From NCBI GenBank assembly GCA_902475615.1, contig CABSAD010000002.1:110287-174286 (forward strand): a stretch of 64,000 bases of DNA. The letters run 5' to 3'. The first letter of the stretch is position 1; each line of letters opens with the position of its first letter. The DNA is from an uncultured Collinsella sp. Lineage in GTDB: Bacteria; Actinomycetota; Coriobacteriia; Coriobacteriales; Coriobacteriaceae. The position numbers and the translations under genes are program-made. This document shows, in pieces, positions 53,005 to 64,000 of the stretch. The notes below the pieces were generated by a model. It did no database searches and was not told the DNA's origin. It was given only the letters and a program-made list of their open reading frames with translations.

Positions 53005-54240
53005 TCAAATAAGATCACCGCCATCTTGCATAAACGACGCCATGTTAAGGTGCCTGACGCCATCCCTCTCCTGCAATAGAGGATCAAGCGTGAACAAGTA
53101 GCGCGGATACCCATCCCTGATGTGGCCGAACGGCCTGTACTCGCGCTCCTCGACGCCTCTGTCGGCAATCGACATAGAGACCTGGATGTAGGCGTAAGCA
53201 TTGCGCCTACGAGCGATGAAGTCACACTCGAGCTTCCCAATACGGCCCACAGAAAGCTCGTACCCGCGCGATGCAAGATAGAGGTAGAGCACGTTCTCCA
53301 ACGCCGGCCCGTAGTTAATCCTCGCATCCGTGTTCATGGCGAAATAGAAGCCGGGATCAGCCAGGTAGTACTTCTCTTCGCGGATAAGCGATCGCCGAGA
53401 CTTGAGATCGAACCTCGAGCAGCGATAAAGGATCTTCGCGTCAACAAGAATCTGGATATACCGATTGAGCGTTTCGCGCTTGATGGGAATCTTCTCGACA
53501 TCATTGAAGTACGCAAGGAGGTTCTTCAGGTTCGTCGGCGCACCAAAGTTGTTGATGAGATACGTCTGGACGGCATCGAAAACCGAGACATTCTTAATCT
53601 TGTTCGAATGTTTGACGTCCTTTTCAAAGATCTCATGAATAACACTCTTGATATAGGTGCGCTTTTCATCCTCGCCCTCATACTCCAACGCTTTGGGAAA
53701 TCCTCCAAGGGTCAGGTACTCGGTAAACTCTCCCACGAGAACGTCATTGACAGGCTTGCCGAGAAAACGCTTCATATCGATATATTCCGCAAAGTCGAGT
53801 GGGAACACCTCGAACTCGATATAGCGACCCGTCAGCTTTGTAACAAGCTGCCCAGAAAGCAGATATGAATTCGAACCGGTAATGAAAATGGACCAACCGC
53901 CATCTGTCCGGTAGCCGTTGATGAGCAGCTCGAATTCCTCTACGTTCTGAATCTCATCGATGAAGAGGTACTTCGTCTCCTCAGTGTCTGCTGGGGTCGA
54001 CATGTCAATCAGATTTTCGAGCTCATCGGTCGTCTTGACCTTCCTGTTCTCCCGTGAGTCGAGGTCGATATAGATGATGTGGTCGCTCGCTACACCGGAT
54101 TCCACAAGTTCGTCTGCGATTGATTGCATGAGGCAGGATTTACCACACCTGCGAACACCGGTGATTACCTTGATCATCCCGTCATCGTGGTAGAAACCAC
54201 GCATTCGCTTCAGATACTTTTCACGTCGGTATATACGCAA
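53005..54240 (-). CDS. ATP-binding protein (AAA_14 + DUF4143)
   Basis: Walker A GVRRCGKS and Walker B YLFIDEIQ with a DUF4143-type C-terminus. About 45% GC. Confidence 0.85.
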   Translation of the reverse strand: MRIYRREKYLKRMRGFYHDDGMIKVITGVRRCGKSCLMQSIADELVESGVASDHIIYIDLDSRENRKVKTTDELENLIDMSTPADTEETKYLFIDEIQNVEEFELLINGYRTDGGWSIFITGSNSYLLSGQLVTKLTGRYIEFEVFPLDFAEYIDMKRFLGKPVNDVLVGEFTEYLTLGGFPKALEYEGEDEKRTYIKSVIHEIFEKDVKHSNKIKNVSVFDAVQTYLINNFGAPTNLKNLLAYFNDVEKIPIKRETLNRYIQILVDAKILYRCSRFDLKSRRSLIREEKYYLADPGFYFAMNTDARINYGPALENVLYLYLASRGYELSVGRIGKLECDFIARRRNAYAYIQVSMSIADRGVEEREYRPFGHIRDGYPRYLFTLDPLLQERDGVRHLNMASFMQDGGDLI

Positions 54241-54357
54241 GATGCACCCCCTTTTCAGTGTCCATTATATCAGTTATGGGGGTACTTTTTTACATTTTAT
54301 AAAAAAGCGTACCGATAACTTATTCCCGCTTAGTTTCGAAAGTCAAATAACTTTGAA

Positions 54358-54588
54358 GTTTCGAAAGCGAGAAGGCAATATGCGCAAAGACGCGTCGGAG
54401 GGGTAAGCCCCAGCCATGTCGTGTCGGCAGCGACGAAGGGCGCGTCTGCGCGTGCTACAATGCGGACATCAGAGATGAAAACACAGTCCCCGTCGGGTAG
54501 TCGTGGGCGTGCGCTAGTCCGCATCAGTAACCTGCCTCCTTGGTTGTCCCTTCTCTGCATGGTCATCTACATAAAGGAGGAACCAACC
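54358..54588 (+). ncRNA. candidate yjdF-motif riboswitch / structured leader, copy 1
   Basis: Conserved leader of about 230 nt ending in aaaggagg-N8-GTG. A second copy is at 62802..63029. A predicted stem GCGGAC...GUCCGC here corresponds to GCGGGC...GCCCGC in copy 2, a compensatory double change. The downstream gene is YjdF/DUF2992 family. Confidence 0.5.
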
Positions 54589-55008
54589 GTGCAGATCAGC
54601 GTGTCGTCCACCCTGACCGTATATCACGACGGTCAATTCTGGGTCGGGCTGGCGGAGCACGTCGAGGGCGGAAGGTATGGCGTCACCCGCATCGTCTTCG
54701 GCGCGGAGCCATCCGATGAGGAGATTCTGCGATTCGTTACAAGCGAATGGGAGAAGCTCTCGTTCTTCGGCGACAAGGCCACTGAAACAAGCAAGCCCGC
54801 GAAGAACCCCAAGCGGCGCGCTCGCGAGGCAGCGAAAGCCCTTAAACGGCCCGCGGTGAGCACCAAGGCACAACAGGCTCTCGCGGCACAGCGGGAAGCA
54901 ATGAAGCGGGAGTCGGCTCAAGCAAGAAGTCAGCGTCGCGCGGATGAGGCGGAGACGCGCTTCGAGCAGCGAAAGTTGAAGCGCAAGCAGAAACATCGCG
55001 GGCATTGA
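54589..55008 (+). CDS. YjdF-family protein (DUF2992), GTG start
   Basis: VQISVSSTLTVYHDGQFWVGLAEH...NPKRRAREAAKA...STKAQQALAAQRE with a lysine/arginine-rich C-terminus, the pattern of B. subtilis YjdF-like proteins. Confidence 0.7.
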   Translation: MQISVSSTLTVYHDGQFWVGLAEHVEGGRYGVTRIVFGAEPSDEEILRFVTSEWEKLSFFGDKATETSKPAKNPKRRAREAAKALKRPAVSTKAQQALAAQREAMKRESAQARSQRRADEAETRFEQRKLKRKQKHRGH

Positions 55009-55216
55009 TCGCCATTTGCAGCAAGGCAAACCATATACAGCAGCGGCGCCAGTTCCACTTGAAGCCGACGCAGCGTAGACGCTGATGGTGACGGCTATGC
55101 ACGGGCACGGGCGCGCCACCGCACTTCACAGCTTGTTTCTCAAGTATTTGGGACGCACACGCGGCGTTCAAAAATGTAAAGCGGTTCCGCATGGCTCGAG
55201 ACTGAGCCGAGGTGCC

Positions 55217-55666
55217 CTACTTCTCGCCCTCCAGCAGCCCCACGATGCGGTCGATGTCGACGGCAAAGCGGGGCCTTCCCTCGCGCTCGTAGCGGTCGAG
55301 GTACGCCTGGCACTCGGAGACAATGCGCTTGGTGTTGCCATCGATGATGCGCTGGAGCGTCTCGTAGTAGGCCGAGCCCTCGGTCCTGAAGCGGCGCTGG
55401 TAGGCCTTGGTTATGGGGAACATCTTGATGTAGTGGATGCCGTGGCGGCAGCCGGGGCGCGTCGTGGGGCGGGGTGGCAACGCAAAGTACTGGTCTTTGG
55501 GCACGTTAGGGGCGATGTTGGAACGCAGCGGCACGGCGAAGTCCCTGCGCTTCCCGCGGAAACGCAGCCTCACCACCACGATGCAAGGACGATTGTGCTT
55601 AAGCATGAGCTCGCGGTCGCCCTCGACGAGGTCGAAGAAGTCCTGGGAGATGGATACGATCTTCAT
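55217..55666 (-). CDS. ToxN/AbiQ-family type III toxin-like endoribonuclease
   Basis: MKIVSISQDFFDLVEGD...HNRPCIVVVRLRF...DFAVPLRS...IHYIKMFPI parallels ToxN/AbiQ blocks (MKFYT..KYI.YL, KPY.GIVLEI..KYFAPLSS, NNMIPV). About 62% GC. Confidence 0.55.
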   Translation of the reverse strand: MKIVSISQDFFDLVEGDRELMLKHNRPCIVVVRLRFRGKRRDFAVPLRSNIAPNVPKDQYFALPPRPTTRPGCRHGIHYIKMFPITKAYQRRFRTEGSAYYETLQRIIDGNTKRIVSECQAYLDRYEREGRPRFAVDIDRIVGLLEGEK

Positions 55667-56123
55667 CGGTTACGCCCCCCTTCATACGAAGCGGGGCCCG
55701 CATCGCTGCAGGCCCCTACAGGTGGGCGATATTCTACGCCTTGCGGCACCCCGTCGCCCACGGAGGTTAAACGTACACGTAAGCCGTACTCTGAAAGCCG
55801 CGGCTTCCGGCAAGTAGTTTATACCACGAAAGGTCGCTTTCGATGCGCCTAGCTCGCAAAATAACACTCGATGGGCCGTCACCCCTGATCTTCTCGACCG
55901 TCTCCTCCGGGTACTTATCGCGTGCCACGGGCACCTCCGTCCTTGTTATCGCGATAAACATACCATGAGTGGCGTACGGGTCGAGAAGGGCTGGCGCCAA
56001 AAGAGCCCAACGGCCGTTACGGCTTCGTTAGAAACGCGCCCCACCATGGATGATGAACCCGAAAGGTAAGGCGCGCGGGCACGGCGACTCGGCCCGCGCG
56101 CCCGGAAGAGAAAGGACGAACCC

Positions 56124-56848
<725 letters not shown>

Positions 56849-56852
<4 letters not shown>

Positions 56853-57619
56853 CGGGCGAGAAAGGCGGCCTGCTCGCGTGCCTGCGCGCCGAGGCCCTGA
56901 AGTCGCGCCACGCGGCACCGGTTCGCCTGGCCGTGCTCATGGCGCTGCCGATGCCGCTGCTCGGCGCGATGCCCTACCGGGGCGTGCAGATCTTCAGCGC
57001 GTGGAACTACTGGTACGCGCTCTTCCTGCCCGTGTCTCTCTCGCTCGTGGTGGCGTGCGTCGCGCGGGCGGACGCGCGCACGCGGATGCGGGGACTTCTG
57101 GGCCTGGGCTTCCCGCTTAGGCGCGCCTGGTGGGCCAAGGCGCTCTGGTGCCTCGCGCTCTGCGCGCTCTCGAACCTCGTGGTCTTCGGCATCTACCTCG
57201 CGGGCTCGGCGTTCTCCTCGCAGGGCCTCACGGTCGCGGGCACGCTCACGATGCTCCTCTGCGCGCTCGTCAACACGGTGACCGCGGCGTGGATGATCCC
57301 CGCAGGGCTCTTCCTCACGGCGCGGCTCGGCATGCTCGCGGGCATCTTCTGCCCGCTCGCCGCGCAGCTCGTGGGTGGTTTCGCCTGGTCGCTGGTGCCG
57401 CTGCCGCAGCTCTTTCCGCCGTCGGCGAGCATGGTCATCCCCACGAGCTTCATCCCCGTGCTGCCGAGCGGCGAGCCACTCGCGGCGGACATGGCGCTCG
57501 GCGGGGCGCTCGCGGCGGACGGCATGCTCACACTGGCGGGCCTTGCGGTCTGCGCGCTCGCGTTCGCCGCGCTCACGGCGGCGGGCGCGGCCTGGTTCGC
57601 GCGCTCCGAGGAGAGGTGA
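56849..57619 (+). CDS. lantibiotic immunity ABC transporter permease (LanE-like)
   Basis: 256 aa with 6 TM helices, translationally coupled to lanF. Confidence 0.7.
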
Positions 57620-58434
57620 TGGCCATGACACGACTCTCCGACGCGACGCCGCGCATGACTCTCCCGCGGGCCCTGCTCTCCGAGGCCCTGCGCCTGGCGC
57701 GCTCCCCGCTCGCAGCTGTGCACCTCGTCTGCGGCCTGGCAGCCGGTCTTGCCTGCGGCGAGTACTTCTCCATAACCCGATGGGACCCGGCGCTGGGCGC
57801 GGACGCCTACGCCCAGTTCCTCGGCGCCCTCATGCCGCTCATGTCCGCCATCGTCTGCGGGCTCGCCGTGGACGAGGAGCGCGCTGCCGGGCGCCTCGCC
57901 AACCTCACGGCGGTCCCCTCGCGCGGGCGCGCCGTCGCGGCGAAGCTGCTCGCCCTTGCGGCGCTCGGCGCGGGCGCGCTGGCCGTGGCGCTCGGCGTGT
58001 TCGGGGCCGTGCTCGCCGTCGCCGGGCGCCTGCCGCTCGGACCCGCTCCGCTTGCGGCCGCCTGGGCGGGCATCGTGCTGGGCAGCCTGCCCCTCTACGC
58101 GCTGGGGCTCGGCGTGGCCCTGCGCCTCGGCCGCAACGCCGCCATCGGCGCCGGCGCGGCGGGGATGCTCCTCGCGTTCTTCTCAGTGGGCGGACTTGCG
58201 CACGGCCTCATGACCGGCGAGCTCACCGGTGCCCTGGCGACGCCCCTGAGCTGGGTGCCGTTCGCCTGGCCCGCGCGCCTAGGGTCGCTCGGGGTGGAGG
58301 CCTTCATCGACGCCGCACGCGCGGCGGGCCCTCTCCTCACGACTGCGCTCGCTGGCCTCGTGCTCGCCCTAGCAGCCGCCGCCGTCCTTCTGGCCTGGTT
58401 CTGCCGCTTCGAGGACGGGAGGGCAGATGAGTAG
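57619..58434 (+). CDS. lantibiotic immunity ABC transporter permease (LanG-like)
   Basis: About 272 aa with 6 TM helices. The ATGA overlap with the previous gene places the start inside the longer ORF 57130..58434. Confidence 0.65.
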   Translation: MAMTRLSDATPRMTLPRALLSEALRLARSPLAAVHLVCGLAAGLACGEYFSITRWDPALGADAYAQFLGALMPLMSAIVCGLAVDEERAAGRLANLTAVPSRGRAVAAKLLALAALGAGALAVALGVFGAVLAVAGRLPLGPAPLAAAWAGIVLGSLPLYALGLGVALRLGRNAAIGAGAAGMLLAFFSVGGLAHGLMTGELTGALATPLSWVPFAWPARLGSLGVEAFIDAARAAGPLLTTALAGLVLALAAAAVLLAWFCRFEDGRADE

Positions 58435-58828
58435 GAAGCCGCTCGCCGCCGTGCTCGCCCTCCTCTCCGCAGCGCTCGTCCTGGGCGGGAATGCCCTGCT
58501 CGACGCCGGCTGGGGGTCGGCACTGCGCTCGATCGCCGACCGCGTGCTGCCCAACCCTGAGATCGCCATGTGGGCGCCCGCGCCCGAGCCCGGCAGCCAC
58601 GCGAGCTCCTACGCCGACGCCACCGGGGCGGGGGCAAACTACGTCTACCTGGTGGACGCGGCGGACGATAGGGGCAATGTCCGAGAGCTCCAGCTCATCT
58701 TCTTCGGGCGGGAGTCGGACGGCGAGGGCTGGCTCGAAATCGAGGCGCGCGGCGGCTCGGGCGTGCGCTACCGCGCGTGCGATGCGGCCGAGGCGCCCGC
58801 GGCTGCGCGCGGGGCTCTGGACCGCTGA
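58427..58828 (+). CDS. hypothetical secreted protein (signal peptide) in the LanFEG island
   Basis: 133 aa with an N-terminal signal-like hydrophobic segment and no lipobox. Confidence 0.4.
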   Translation: MSRKPLAAVLALLSAALVLGGNALLDAGWGSALRSIADRVLPNPEIAMWAPAPEPGSHASSYADATGAGANYVYLVDAADDRGNVRELQLIFFGRESDGEGWLEIEARGGSGVRYRACDAAEAPAAARGALDR

Positions 58829-58873
58829 GCGCGGCGCTAGTACAATGCCGACGGGAGTTTCAGGAGGTCGAAC

Positions 58874-59536
58874 ATGGCGAGGATACTGGCAGTGGATGAT
58901 GAACGGGCGATCCTCGACGCACTCGCGCGCGTCCTCGGCCGCGACGGCCATGAGGTCGTCAAGGCGGCGGACCCGACGGCGGTCCCGGGGATGGACCTCT
59001 CGCGCTTCGACCTCGTGCTCTGCGACGTCATGATGCCGGGGCTCGACGGCTTCGAGCTCGTGCGGCAGATCCGCCCGGACTTCGACGGGCCCATCGTCTT
59101 CCTTACCGCGCGCGTGGCCGAGGAGGACGCCGTGGCTGCCTACGGCCTGGGCGCCGACGACTACGTTCGCAAGCCCTTCGGGGCCGCGGAACTGCGCGCC
59201 AAGGTCGCGGCCCATCTACGCCGTGAGCGCCGGCCGCGCTCGCACGCCCTCTCCTTCGGGGAGGTGCGGATCGACCTCGGGGCGCGTGACCTCGCCGTGG
59301 GCGGCGAGGCCGTGCCGCTCACGCCCACCGAGTACGCCATCTGCGAGTACCTCGCTCGTCACCCCGGGCAGGTCATGAGCCGTACGCAGATACGCGAGGC
59401 GGTGCTCGGCTGGGAGAGCGACGCCGACGACGCGGCCATATCCATGCAGGTCAGCCGCGCCCGGAGGAAACTCTCCGAGGCCGGCGCCGATCCGATCGCG
59501 ACCGTCTGGGGAATGGGGTACAAGTGGCAGCTCTGA
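58874..59536 (+). CDS. OmpR-family response regulator (LanR-like)
   Basis: REC (RILAVDDERAI...DLVLCDVMMPGLDG) and a winged-helix domain. Confidence 0.9.
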   Translation: MARILAVDDERAILDALARVLGRDGHEVVKAADPTAVPGMDLSRFDLVLCDVMMPGLDGFELVRQIRPDFDGPIVFLTARVAEEDAVAAYGLGADDYVRKPFGAAELRAKVAAHLRRERRPRSHALSFGEVRIDLGARDLAVGGEAVPLTPTEYAICEYLARHPGQVMSRTQIREAVLGWESDADDAAISMQVSRARRKLSEAGADPIATVWGMGYKWQL

Positions 59537-59562
59537 GGATCGGGGCGCGAGGTCGCGGGGGC

Positions 59563-60960
59563 ATGCCGCTCTCCTTCGTCATCGCGCGCTACTTCGCCTA
59601 CGCGTTCGCGGCAGTCGCCACGGCGTGGCTCGCCTCGTTCATGGTGCTCTCCGTGGCGATCAACGCGGGCTTCGTCTACGAGGCAAGCTGGGGGCCGGCC
59701 AATGTGCGCGAGGTCGCGGAGGGCCTGGCACGCGACGGCGTCTGCGGGCAGCAGGACGTGCCGACGGCGTACCGCTACCTCATCCTGAACAAGGACGGAT
59801 ACGTGCTGATGACAGACCTCGAGGGCACGAGGCTCGAGGACGCGACGGAAATGGCCCGTGCGGCACTCGCCGCGGATCCGGGCACAGTGGAGATCGAGGG
59901 CGGGGGCTCGGGCCTCACCTACGCCGCGTTCCCGCTCAAGGGCGGCGGGGCCTGCGCACTCGTCAGCGAGTACCTGCCGCAGTGGGTCTCGCGCGATCTC
60001 GCCGGCCTGCTTCCCAACCCACAGAACCTCATGCTCGTCGGCGCCGCTGCGGGAAGCGCGCTCGCGCTCGCGCTCGTGGCGCGCCGTGCGAGCCGCGTGA
60101 TCTCGCGCAAGATGGCGCCGCTCGCGGAGGCAGCGAGGCGCGTCGGCGCGGGGGATCTCGACTTCGCGGTCGGCAGCACCAACGTGCGCGAGGTGAACGA
60201 CGTCCTCGCCGCGATGGACGCCATGCGGACCTCCCTCGCCGAGTCGCTCGAGGCCCGCTGGGCCGCGGAGCGGGGGCAGCGCGAGCAGGTGGCGTCGCTC
60301 GCCCACGACCTCAAGACGCCGCTCACCGTGCTGCGCGCCAACGCCGACTTCGTGGCGGAGGAGCTGGAAGACGAGAAAGACGCCGACCTCGCGGCCGCCG
60401 CGCGCGACATAGCCGGCGGTGTCGAAAGGCTCGACGGCTACGTGCGCCTGCTCATCGAGGCCTCGCGCGGGTCCGGCGGGGCGGAGAGGGCCCCCATGCG
60501 GCCGGCCGAGCTCTGCGAACAGGTCCTCGCCGAGGCTGCCCAGATCGCCCGGGCGCGAGGCGTGACGCTCGACGCGGCCACGGGCCCCGCTGTCGCGGGC
60601 GCGCCCGAGGCCCCACTCGACCGAACCAGCCTGGCGCGAGCCGTCGCGAACCTCGTGGCCAACGCCGCCGAGCACGCACGCTCGCGCGTGGCTGTCTCCT
60701 GCGACGTCGCGGGCGGGCGCCTCGTCATCGAGGTTGCCGACGACGGACCGGGCTTCTCTCCCGCCGCCCTCGAGCGCGGCTGCGAGCGCCTCTTCACAGA
60801 CGACTCCTCCCGCTCCTCGCGCGACGGAGGCCGCCATTACGGGCTCGGCCTCCATGCCGCCTCCGAGGCCGCGAGCGCCCACGGGGGCTCCGTCTCGCTC
60901 GCCAACGGCCCCTCGGGCGGCGCGGTGGCCACTATCGCGGTCCCCCTGTGCGGGATCTGA
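59563..60960 (+). CDS. sensor histidine kinase (LanK-like)
   Basis: Two TM helices, HisKA (SLAHDLKTPLTVL) and HATPase_c (GLGLHAASEAASAHGG). The ORF opens at 59524. Confidence 0.85.
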   Translation: MPLSFVIARYFAYAFAAVATAWLASFMVLSVAINAGFVYEASWGPANVREVAEGLARDGVCGQQDVPTAYRYLILNKDGYVLMTDLEGTRLEDATEMARAALAADPGTVEIEGGGSGLTYAAFPLKGGGACALVSEYLPQWVSRDLAGLLPNPQNLMLVGAAAGSALALALVARRASRVISRKMAPLAEAARRVGAGDLDFAVGSTNVREVNDVLAAMDAMRTSLAESLEARWAAERGQREQVASLAHDLKTPLTVLRANADFVAEELEDEKDADLAAAARDIAGGVERLDGYVRLLIEASRGSGGAERAPMRPAELCEQVLAEAAQIARARGVTLDAATGPAVAGAPEAPLDRTSLARAVANLVANAAEHARSRVAVSCDVAGGRLVIEVADDGPGFSPAALERGCERLFTDDSSRSSRDGGRHYGLGLHAASEAASAHGGSVSLANGPSGGAVATIAVPLCGI

Positions 60961-61039
60961 CGACTCAGACCCTCACACCGGCGTGCCTCGTAATCAAACG
61001 CTTCCCGGATAATAATGCCCGTTGCGGGGATCGCACTGG

Positions 61040-61971: not shown

Positions 61972-62801
61972 CGCAACAAACCTCCCTGAGCTTGGGTTTC
62001 CGTCGATATCCGACCAAATATAGCAATGGGCGCGGCTTCGGAAGAGGCCGCGCCCATTGCAGGATATTATAACACAGAATCGAACGTCTGTTCTATTCCC
62101 ACTCGGTGGTTATAGTTTTGCCGTCTCGTCACTCCAGTTGCACCCAGTTTTCGGCGGCATCTCGAAGTGAGTGCCGCTGAATGACGCGACGTCGCGTTTC
62201 ATCGGCTTCGGGGACAAAAGCTGGGACAACTTCAAAAACCATTTTCAAACTCAGAGTATTGAGTTTTTATTTTTGTCCCAAGGGGCACGGAGAGCCGCCT
62301 TTGGAGGCTCGATATCGCCGAAAAACGCCCGTTTTGAAACTCAACCGCCTTTGAGCCTGCAAACCACCAGCTTCAACAGTAAGTGAGTCGACGCGGGTGG
62401 CTTACGAGCCGTTCACAAAACCGCAGGCCACAGGTCTTTGTCAACGATAAGCAAAGTGAATAGTCTCAGGTGGCTTGCCCATGAGTTGGCGTAAGCCTGT
62501 TTAGCAAAAGGCTAATCGGACACGACAGGCCGCCCGCATGGCGACGGCGTTTCCCGTGCGGGCACAAACAGCCCTGCGTGCCCTGTCGCGCGATATCCCA
62601 ATGCGACGTTCAGAACCCTACCCGCCAAGCAGCCACCTCGCGAAATTCAGCACGAGCACGCCCTCCCGGGTATGGGGCTCATGCCTCGTGCGAGTGATGA
62701 GAATCTTCGGGAATGCATCCCCGATGGATAGAATCGGCGCAATCTCCCTCTCGAGCGTCGAATCGGCGCCGATATCGTCGCTCACATACACTTTCCTTCC
62801 C

Positions 62802-63029
62802 GGTTTCGAAACTTGGAAGGCAGTATGCGCAAGGATGCGTCGAGGTGCGATCCCAGTCGTACCATGCCAGCAGAGATGTCGAGGCACATTCGTTCATGCT
62901 GCAATGCGGGCATCGGAGATGAAAAACAGCCCGTCGGGTAGTCATGGGCGTGCGGGAGCCCGCATCAGTAACCTGCCTCCTCGGTTGTCCCTTCTTTGCA
63001 TGGTCGTCTACATAAAGGAGGAACCAGCC
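62802..63029 (+). ncRNA. candidate yjdF-motif riboswitch / structured leader, copy 2 (downstream ORF degenerate)
   Basis: About 85% identical to 54358..54588, including aaaggagg-N8-ATG CAG ATC AGC. The downstream coding sequence diverges after 4 codons, so it is a yjdF remnant. Confidence 0.45.
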
Positions 63030-63622
63030 ATGCAGATCAGCATGCTTGCCCTTCTTGGGTCACGGACCGGGGAGGCGAGGGCCTCCGTCGGGACCGCCCC
63101 GAGCAACCGGCATATCCAAGGAATGACAAGGCTCGATCGCTGTGCTGGTCAGGATGCCGAAGCGGGCCGTCCGCCAATCGGAATGCGGGTCAGGATGCTG
63201 CAACGTGATTCCAGCTGCAGGATACGGCTCCTTTGCGGTTGCCGCAAAACCTGCTGGCAACATTCTTACTATCCGAATGATGTACGCATCCCTTGGGATC
63301 GTTTCGCCTGACCAGGGCCATCTTCAGCGCCTCATCGGCCAGCTCGGCAGGCGCCTCTTCCACGCGTAATAGCCCTGGCGGGTCACCTATGCAACCAAAG
63401 ATACAAAAGGAATCGAATGGCCAGAGAGGATTGCCCTTACCGATGCTCGATTCTTGACAGGCAAACTCAAGCCTCGTTAATATTACATGGTTTGCCAGAC
63501 CGAATTAACAAAGGAGGGGTGTCGTGGTTGGTCTTTTCCGCACGTGGATGAGCGCCTAGAAAGCGGCGCTGTTGTGGCGTCGCGCTGTTTTTCTGCACGC
63601 CATTTCACGATTGGACATAACC

Positions 63623-64000
63623 ATGATATTTGAAACCTCTCGGGGCAGGTCTGTTCTGCTGTGCCATTCATGGCAATTCAAGCTTTGTTTCGTATGGGGC
63701 GGGGAGCTCGTTTCGACATTGACGAGTTCGATTCTCCAAATGGGTCTTATTTGGCATCTCGCCCTCACGACAGGGTCGTCTTCTCTCCTCTCCTTAGCAT
63801 CGCTGGCAGGCTTTCTGCCGATTGCTTTGTTCGGAATCCTTGCGGGCGCCGTTGTCGACAGACTGCCTTTGAAACGTGTCCTCATCGGCGCCGACCTCTT
63901 CATTGCCGCGGTGGGTGCCGCCTTGGCGATTGCCTCGTTGGCCGGCAGCTTACCTGCATGGCTAATTCTCATCGCCCTGTTTCTCCGTGCAGTTGGTACT
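63623..64000 (+). CDS. MFS transporter (N-terminal part; continues beyond the window)
   Basis: Frame reads ...GGELVSTLTSSILQMGLIWHLALTTGSSSLLSLASLAGFLPIALFGILAGAVVDRLPLKRVLIGADL..., the typical N-terminus of a macrolide/enterobactin-type MFS exporter. Confidence 0.6.
   Translation, partial: MIFETSRGRSVLLCHSWQFKLCFVWGGELVSTLTSSILQMGLIWHLALTTGSSSLLSLASLAGFLPIALFGILAGAVVDRLPLKRVLIGADLFIAAVGAALAIASLAGSLPAWLILIALFLRAVGT

Follow-up and report, generated by a model that had tools for sequence, protein, structure and literature searches.

The yjdF or azaaromatic riboswitch class was first described in 2010 (Weinberg, PMC2864571). Structure probing and crystallography of the aptamer have followed, and the class is treated in Li 2016 (PMC4793209), Trachman 2022 (PMC9142559) and Spradlin 2025 (PMC12641257). 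Its conserved junctions are A-C-A-C-R in J1/2, C-A-G-U-A-A-C-C-U in J3/4 and U-G-U after P4 (PMC12641257), and pairing of L4/P4 with the ribosome-binding site constitutes the OFF state of the family (PMC4793209, PMC9142559). The YjdF proteins have C-termini with a Lys/Arg content ranging from 28.5 to 57.1% (PMC4793209), and representatives from Actinobacteria have been on record since 2016 (Li et al., PMC4793209). Which natural ligand the class binds is disputed (PMC12641257).

Here we analysed a stretch of 64,000 nucleotides from an uncultured Collinsella sp. (hereafter the window), for which an initial annotation made from the sequence alone had proposed a yjdF-type riboswitch in a duplicated leader upstream of a DUF2992 gene. 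Searched with cmscan against Rfam 15, the complete window gave exactly two matches at gathering level (45 bits), both to RF01764, one in each copy of the leader and each covering the full model (positions 1–101 of 101), at 56.9 bits for copy 1 and 48.4 bits for copy 2 (Table 1). The riboswitch call was therefore borne out in both of the regions for which this check had been proposed beforehand. No Rfam family other than RF01764 was found in 54200–54650 in a permissive search (E up to 10). We are confident that copy 1 is an ordinary yjdF/azaaromatic riboswitch together with its predicted expression platform (to 54595), which would exert translational control of the adjacent yjdF gene, and that copy 2 is the decaying remnant of a second locus.

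Table 1 Features of the yjdF leader, its gene and the second copy, in window coordinates
Feature	Position (nt)	Strand	Basis
Palindrome GTTTCGAAAG, two copies (candidate operator pair)	54333–54342, 54358–54367		Pattern search
Weak candidate promoter P1: TTGAAG, 17 nt, CAATAT	54353–54381	+	By eye
Extended −10-like box TGCTACAAT, candidate promoter P2	54453–54461	+	Conservation; putative promoter
yjdF/azaaromatic riboswitch aptamer (RF01764), copy 1	54465–54567	+	cmscan 56.9 bits, full model
Helix P1, copy 1	54470–54475/54552–54557
Helix P2, copy 1	54486–54492/54502–54508
Helix P3, copy 1	54509–54513/54520–54524
Helix P4, copy 1	54534–54536/54542–54544
Anti-SD CCUCCUU in P4/L4	54535–54541	+	7-bp complement of SD AAGGAGG, 54574–54580
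Candidate sequestering helix UCUGCAUGGU/ACCGUGCAGA	54554–54563/54586–54595	+	MFE and centroid folds
yjdF gene (139 aa, GTG start), DUF2992	54589–55008	+	Pfam PF11208
C-terminal remnant (~60 codons) of DUF4143-type ATPase gene	62618–62800	−	Abuts copy 2
Copy 2, relic yjdF leader	62803–63044	+	RF01764 48.4 bits; homology to 54358–54603
Palindrome of copy 2	62803–62812
−10 box of copy 2	62897–62905
Aptamer of copy 2	62909–63008		cmscan 48.4 bits, full model
SD of copy 2	63015–63021
ATG of copy 2	63030
93-codon ORF after copy 2, probably not a gene	63030–63311	+	No family

The protein encoded downstream of copy 1 belongs to DUF2992, as had been expected, matching PF11208 over its full length (profile positions 1–132 of 132, E 3.2e-42, 144.3 bits where the cut-off is 23.8 bits), and Lys and Arg make up 37% of its last 35 residues, inside the range given for YjdF proteins. 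Between the end of the aptamer and the yjdF start lie 21 nt, which places the aptamer in the 5′ UTR of a DUF2992 gene, with the Shine-Dalgarno stretch AAAGGAGG at 54573–54580 and the GTG start at 54589 exactly as originally described. The arrangement recurs throughout the lineage, RF01764 matches (55–64 bits) lying directly upstream of yjdF in 16 of 16 related loci scanned and also in a 413-kb metagenome scaffold of the same strain (L081), which is 99.98% identical to the window; identity to a Collinsella MAG contig (L001) is 99.2%. We retrieved 2354 YjdF homologues, with relatives encoded at at least 387 loci in species-level genomes, and the best 80 of these came almost entirely from Collinsella/Coriobacteriaceae of the human gut. 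A YjdF protein (P0103) from Arcanobacterium phocae, which belongs to a different actinobacterial order, is 90% identical to that of the window and suggests horizontal spread of yjdF.

Convergent with yjdF lies a gene for a 149-aa protein (55217–55666, minus strand), and the two form a 1.55-kb module (54333–55887) that stays together in nearly all of the 80 loci. The 149-aa gene resembles the TenpIN family of type III toxins only weakly (32.5 bits, where the cut-off is 90), and no tandem RNA-antitoxin repeats of a type III toxin-antitoxin system were found in 55000–56200. The module ends at a recurrent insertion point (55887/55888), where many loci carry 180–1280 bp extra. In the window it is followed by an island of 70–74% GC (55888–61000) in a genome of 55–60% GC, which encodes an ABC transporter, permease-like genes and a two-component system and is 97–98% identical among Collinsella genomes, above the flanking DNA.

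Comparison with the described class shows that copy 1 forms the four-helix junction P1–P4 with 20 standard pairs (six each in P1 and P2, five in P3 and three in P4), joined by J1/2 (..AAAACACA), J3/4 (CAGUAACCU) and J4/1 (UGUCC), so that the conserved junction nucleotides of the binding pocket and of P3b/P4a are present (AAAACACAG, CAGUAACCU and UGUCC). It further resembles known members in its full-length covariance-model match, in the ACAC of J1/2, in an L4 anti-RBS element complementary to the SD and in its position directly 5′ of a single yjdF/DUF2992 gene whose product has a Lys/Arg-rich C-terminus. The differences are the host, which here is a Collinsella (Coriobacteriia), a C–C mismatch in P3, a P4 of only 3 bp, and an extra 10-bp helix overlapping P1 in its 3′ strand and capable of burying the start codon. 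What the initial annotation called an invariant hairpin is placed differently in this structure: CCCGUCGGGUAG is indeed invariant, but it is not a hairpin of its own, its CCCG being the 5′ arm of P2 (partner CG.GGG, 54502–54506) and UCGGGUAGU being loop L2 of the RF01764 family structure.

The interest of the element had partly been placed in its occurrence in a high-GC Gram-positive genome, a claim of novelty which does not hold, since Actinobacteria already appear in Li et al. 2016 (PMC4793209). Collinsella was not found named for yjdF in the literature text, and the text of the Li 2016 supplement names neither Collinsella nor Actinobacteria. The copy 1 element is of an already known kind, which any Rfam-based annotation would call RF01764.

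Conservation across the lineage is very high. The P1–P4 family pairs are kept at 98% in 36 distinct homologous leaders, and mean column identity is 97% in 58 unique leaders over 54450–54600, a stretch that includes the −10 box, the aptamer and the first codons. Because the homologous leaders are so similar (97% identical) they provide no covariation, and it is the Rfam model and thermodynamics that support the pairs of the aptamer and both OFF-state helices. This bears on the view that the similarity between the two copies reflects nothing other than a recent duplication of DNA without functional RNA, as a comparison of two sequences cannot separate structure from ancestry in a lineage without covariation. 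However, covariance-model matches above a curated threshold in both copies and in 16 of 16 relatives, an aptamer that is 97% identical across species with mosaic flanks, and the canonical association with DUF2992 leave this view effectively refuted.

The platform downstream of the aptamer likely operates as the translational ON switch of the family. The anti-SD element in P4/L4 and its SD partner retain 98.8% of their complementarity in homologues, and the folds contain a candidate sequestering helix of 10 bp that encloses the SD, buries the start codon and shares 54554–54557 with the 3′ strand of aptamer P1. In nearest-neighbour energies the state with this helix reaches −22.5 kcal/mol against −15.1 kcal/mol for the P1 state, and the gap of ~7 kcal/mol, which excludes tertiary and ligand contributions, fits a switch that needs its ligand to turn on. 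Like the anti-SD/SD pairing, this helix is 99% kept, and in both the changes are all wobble-compatible; the set offers no covariation for either. Among the start codons, ATG occurs in 55 of the 58 leaders, GTG in the window and in one other, and ACG in one (L069), and all variants except ACG keep a pair or wobble with U54560, whereas the ACG start breaks the neighbouring pair with A54559.

As we picture the mechanism, the ribosome-binding region would be hidden in the absence of ligand through pairing of CCUCCUU in P4/L4 with the SD AAGGAGG, and in this lineage the 10-bp helix would bury the start codon as well. Ligand binding would then stabilise the four-helix aptamer including P1, and because four nucleotides of P1 also belong to the sequestering helix, both the SD and the start codon would be freed.

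A different structural element had been proposed from a double difference between the two copies, which was read as a compensatory change in a GCGGAC/GUCCGC stem. The difference itself is present (A54466/U54518 in copy 1 against G62910/C62959 in copy 2), and AUGCGGAC (54460–54467) is perfectly complementary to GUCCGCAU (54517–54524), but a compensatory change says little about structure when no more than two paralogous copies are compared, and the stem is not conserved. Across the 36 distinct leaders the variable pair is G–U in 17, A–U in 4 and G–C in one (copy 2 only), and it is unpaired in 14; moreover, the 5′ strand reads CCAACC in place of GCGGRC in 13 of the 36, with an unchanged 3′ partner and three further pairs broken. 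The stem performs no better than shuffled controls on any measure (58 leaders, 36 distinct), and we reject 54460–54467/54517–54524 as a conserved structure. As it uses the 3′ arm of family P3, which GUCCGCAU represents, and also crosses P1, the proposed helix competes with the aptamer and is not part of it. Its 5′ strand furthermore overlaps the conserved extended −10 box TGCTACAAT; if this box is a promoter, with a predicted transcription start at ~54467–54469, just before aptamer P1, most of the supposed 5′ strand may never be RNA.

Of 58 unique leaders, 53 carry the box TGCTACAAT unchanged, among them leaders with unrelated sequence further upstream; a consensus scan of the leader returned no promoters or terminators, and the candidate promoters were assigned by eye and by conservation. 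The two palindromes GTTTCGAAAG flank a weak −35-like TTGAAG (54353–54358), and in most Collinsella leaders GTTTCGAAAC occurs twice, ~25 bp apart, around a weak −35/−10 pair; the GTTTCGAAAC/GTTTCGAAAG palindromes may be operator sites. Across Collinsella the aptamer is invariant, but the upstream part is mosaic and comes in four or more versions that are unrelated or related only in part, and candidate promoter P1 is absent or replaced in several of these types.

It is conceivable, in principle, that the ~230-nt block in its entirety forms a single long structured leader transcribed from ~54385, in which a 5′ domain (a 54391–54399/54439–54447 helix and two hairpins) together with the 8-bp AUGCGGAC/GUCCGCAU helix acts as an anti-aptamer or as a second sensor gating aptamer folding. 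In its favour, both window copies show the 8-bp complementarity without a mismatch, the weak promoter-like TTGAAG-17-CAATAT could supply a start, and the predicted MFE structure from that promoter forms the 8-bp helix and disrupts P1 and P3; across 20 distinct leaders, moreover, each position of the 9-bp long-range upstream helix is paired in 65–100%, with a few double changes among them. We nevertheless regard it as unlikely. In addition to the CCAACC strands opposite an unchanged partner and the overlap with the best-conserved −10-like box, several leader types replace the upstream part wholly and keep riboswitch and gene, and 54200–54464 has no Rfam match even at E up to 10. Upstream structure does no better than shuffles on pair and type counts: a hand-built three-helix model is 80% paired, with four double-change pairs against 3.2 in shuffles, and RNAalifold prefers a different, weak fold (−11 kcal/mol).

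Another reading, which we hold to be decidedly improbable, accepts a transcribed upstream segment under an operator-controlled promoter (the twin GTTTCGAAAC) and takes its 3′ end as a lineage-specific 5′ anti-aptamer strand that would trap the aptamer in an inactive state. This strand would exist in two forms, AUGCGGRC pairing with the 3′ arm of P3 and the CCAACC of other strains being complementary to GGUUG of P4. Most likely, judging from these comparisons, the ~100 nt upstream of the aptamer are promoter/operator DNA rather than extra riboswitch structure. The leader may well be shorter than the ~230 nt noted initially, as part of that block is probably promoter DNA.

Copy 2 lies 8.4 kb downstream of copy 1 on the same strand, and its homology to the copy 1 region is clear (BLAST E ~1e-55 against the L001 locus, which is identical to that of copy 1). 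A second copy therefore exists as had been stated, but not at the ~85% identity given for it: pairwise alignment over the same span yields 79.6%, unevenly distributed between the upstream part (69%, 54358–54464), the aptamer (88%) and the SD/start region (92%), and after 63044 identity is at background (51%). Homology to every other locus likewise ends at 63044, five codons into the ORF (MQIS.., 15 nt), and copy 2 consequently has no DUF2992 gene behind it. The 93-codon ORF that begins at its ATG has no Pfam or NCBIfam match and no similarity to yjdF after codon 5. Splitting of the locus by an insertion was considered and rejected, because no remaining 3′ part of yjdF was found within 8 kb downstream of copy 2 in the same-strain scaffold L081.

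What remains of copy 2 is visibly decaying. A single palindrome is left, a 25-bp deletion between the palindromes having removed the −35, and the −10 box reads TGCTGCAAT, with the key A of TGCTACAAT changed to G. Within the aptamer, a 3-nt deletion affects J1/2–P2 and one conserved J1/2 position, the equivalent of C12, is lost; mutation of C12 costs ~40-fold in affinity (PMC12641257). Copy 2 carries 10 private changes at columns that are invariant in the 57 other leaders, against 0–2 private changes in any other sequence, and it has the lowest RF01764 score of 18 matches.

The upstream flank of copy 2 (62561–62803, ~240 nt) is collinear, at ~76% identity, with the flanks of intact yjdF loci in many genomes. 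It contains the ATPase remnant, which is 34% identical to residues 352–407 of the intact ATPase at 53005–54240 (BLASTP), and the same flank also lies upstream of intact yjdF loci such as L011, L012, L014 and L021. In the initial annotation the remnant ORF was taken to mean that the RNA element had been duplicated or relocated on its own; a degenerate yjdF locus with five codons left is what we find too, but the syntenic flank and the first 15 nt of the ORF identify copy 2 as the relic of a locus and not as an RNA that moved alone. From its sequence context it is best read as the relic of a second yjdF locus whose coding region was lost beside a mef/msr-like resistance operon and which is now decaying. 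Riboswitch relics left by gene loss are a generic phenomenon and have no defined family; copy 2 resembles them in that an aptamer and SD are still recognisable after the loss of gene, promoter elements and conserved nucleotides, and is particular in that its break lies 15 nt into the ORF, beside a mef/msr-like operon.

Several features of the surroundings of both copies may be recorded. The intact ATPase (53005–54240, minus strand) is an AAA_14/DUF4143 protein matching the PADLOC candidate defence family PDC-S01 (439 bits), and stands between a MerR-family gene and the yjdF leader only here and in three other strains, being absent from most Collinsella loci. Ahead of copy 2, a stretch of ~400 nt (62090–62490) preceded by a strong hairpin (~62027–62060) has no called gene, is 74–83% conserved in many Collinsella genomes and in several of them has its counterpart just upstream of an intact yjdF locus. 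Downstream of copy 2 follow a strong promoter-like TTGACA-18-TAATAT (63454–63483), an 11-codon leader ORF with an SD (VVGLFRTWMSA, GTG at 63524 to TAG at 63559), a terminator-like hairpin with a T-run (63563–63583) and, from 63623, a Mef(A)-like MFS gene, which in the same-strain scaffold is followed by an ABC-F gene. The stretch 63454–64000, continued in L081:5332–8232 (minus strand there), has the look of a macrolide-resistance pair of the mef/msr type preceded by a leader-peptide attenuator.

Given this neighbourhood, copy 2 might instead be a working riboswitch that has been co-opted for the 93-codon ORF and, through it, for the mef/msr-like efflux/ribosome-protection operon. It scores above the gathering threshold, keeps its SD, its ATG and both OFF-state complementarities and sits ~590 nt upstream of the Mef(A)-like MFS gene, which would be an attractive target if the ligand were a toxic aromatic compound. 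We consider such co-option highly improbable, however, in view of the lowest score among the matches, the lost J1/2 position, −35 region and key A of the −10, the private changes at invariant columns and a 93-aa product without a family, all the more as the MFS gene is preceded at 63454–63590 by a strong promoter, a leader peptide and a terminator-like attenuator of its own.

With copy 2 read as a relic, the window holds one working yjdF riboswitch–gene pair of a well-studied class and one remnant, which matters little beyond annotation. The Collinsella yjdF leaders are nevertheless near-invariant (97%) across dozens of species-level genomes, which makes them a possible actinobacterial test case for a class now once more counted as an orphan (PMC12641257). 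The palindromes by the promoter hint at a protein regulator, whose signal could point to the natural ligand. Should the upstream strand prove to be an anti-aptamer under an operator-controlled promoter, this orphan riboswitch would gain a second layer of regulation, together with a handle on it through a transcription factor.
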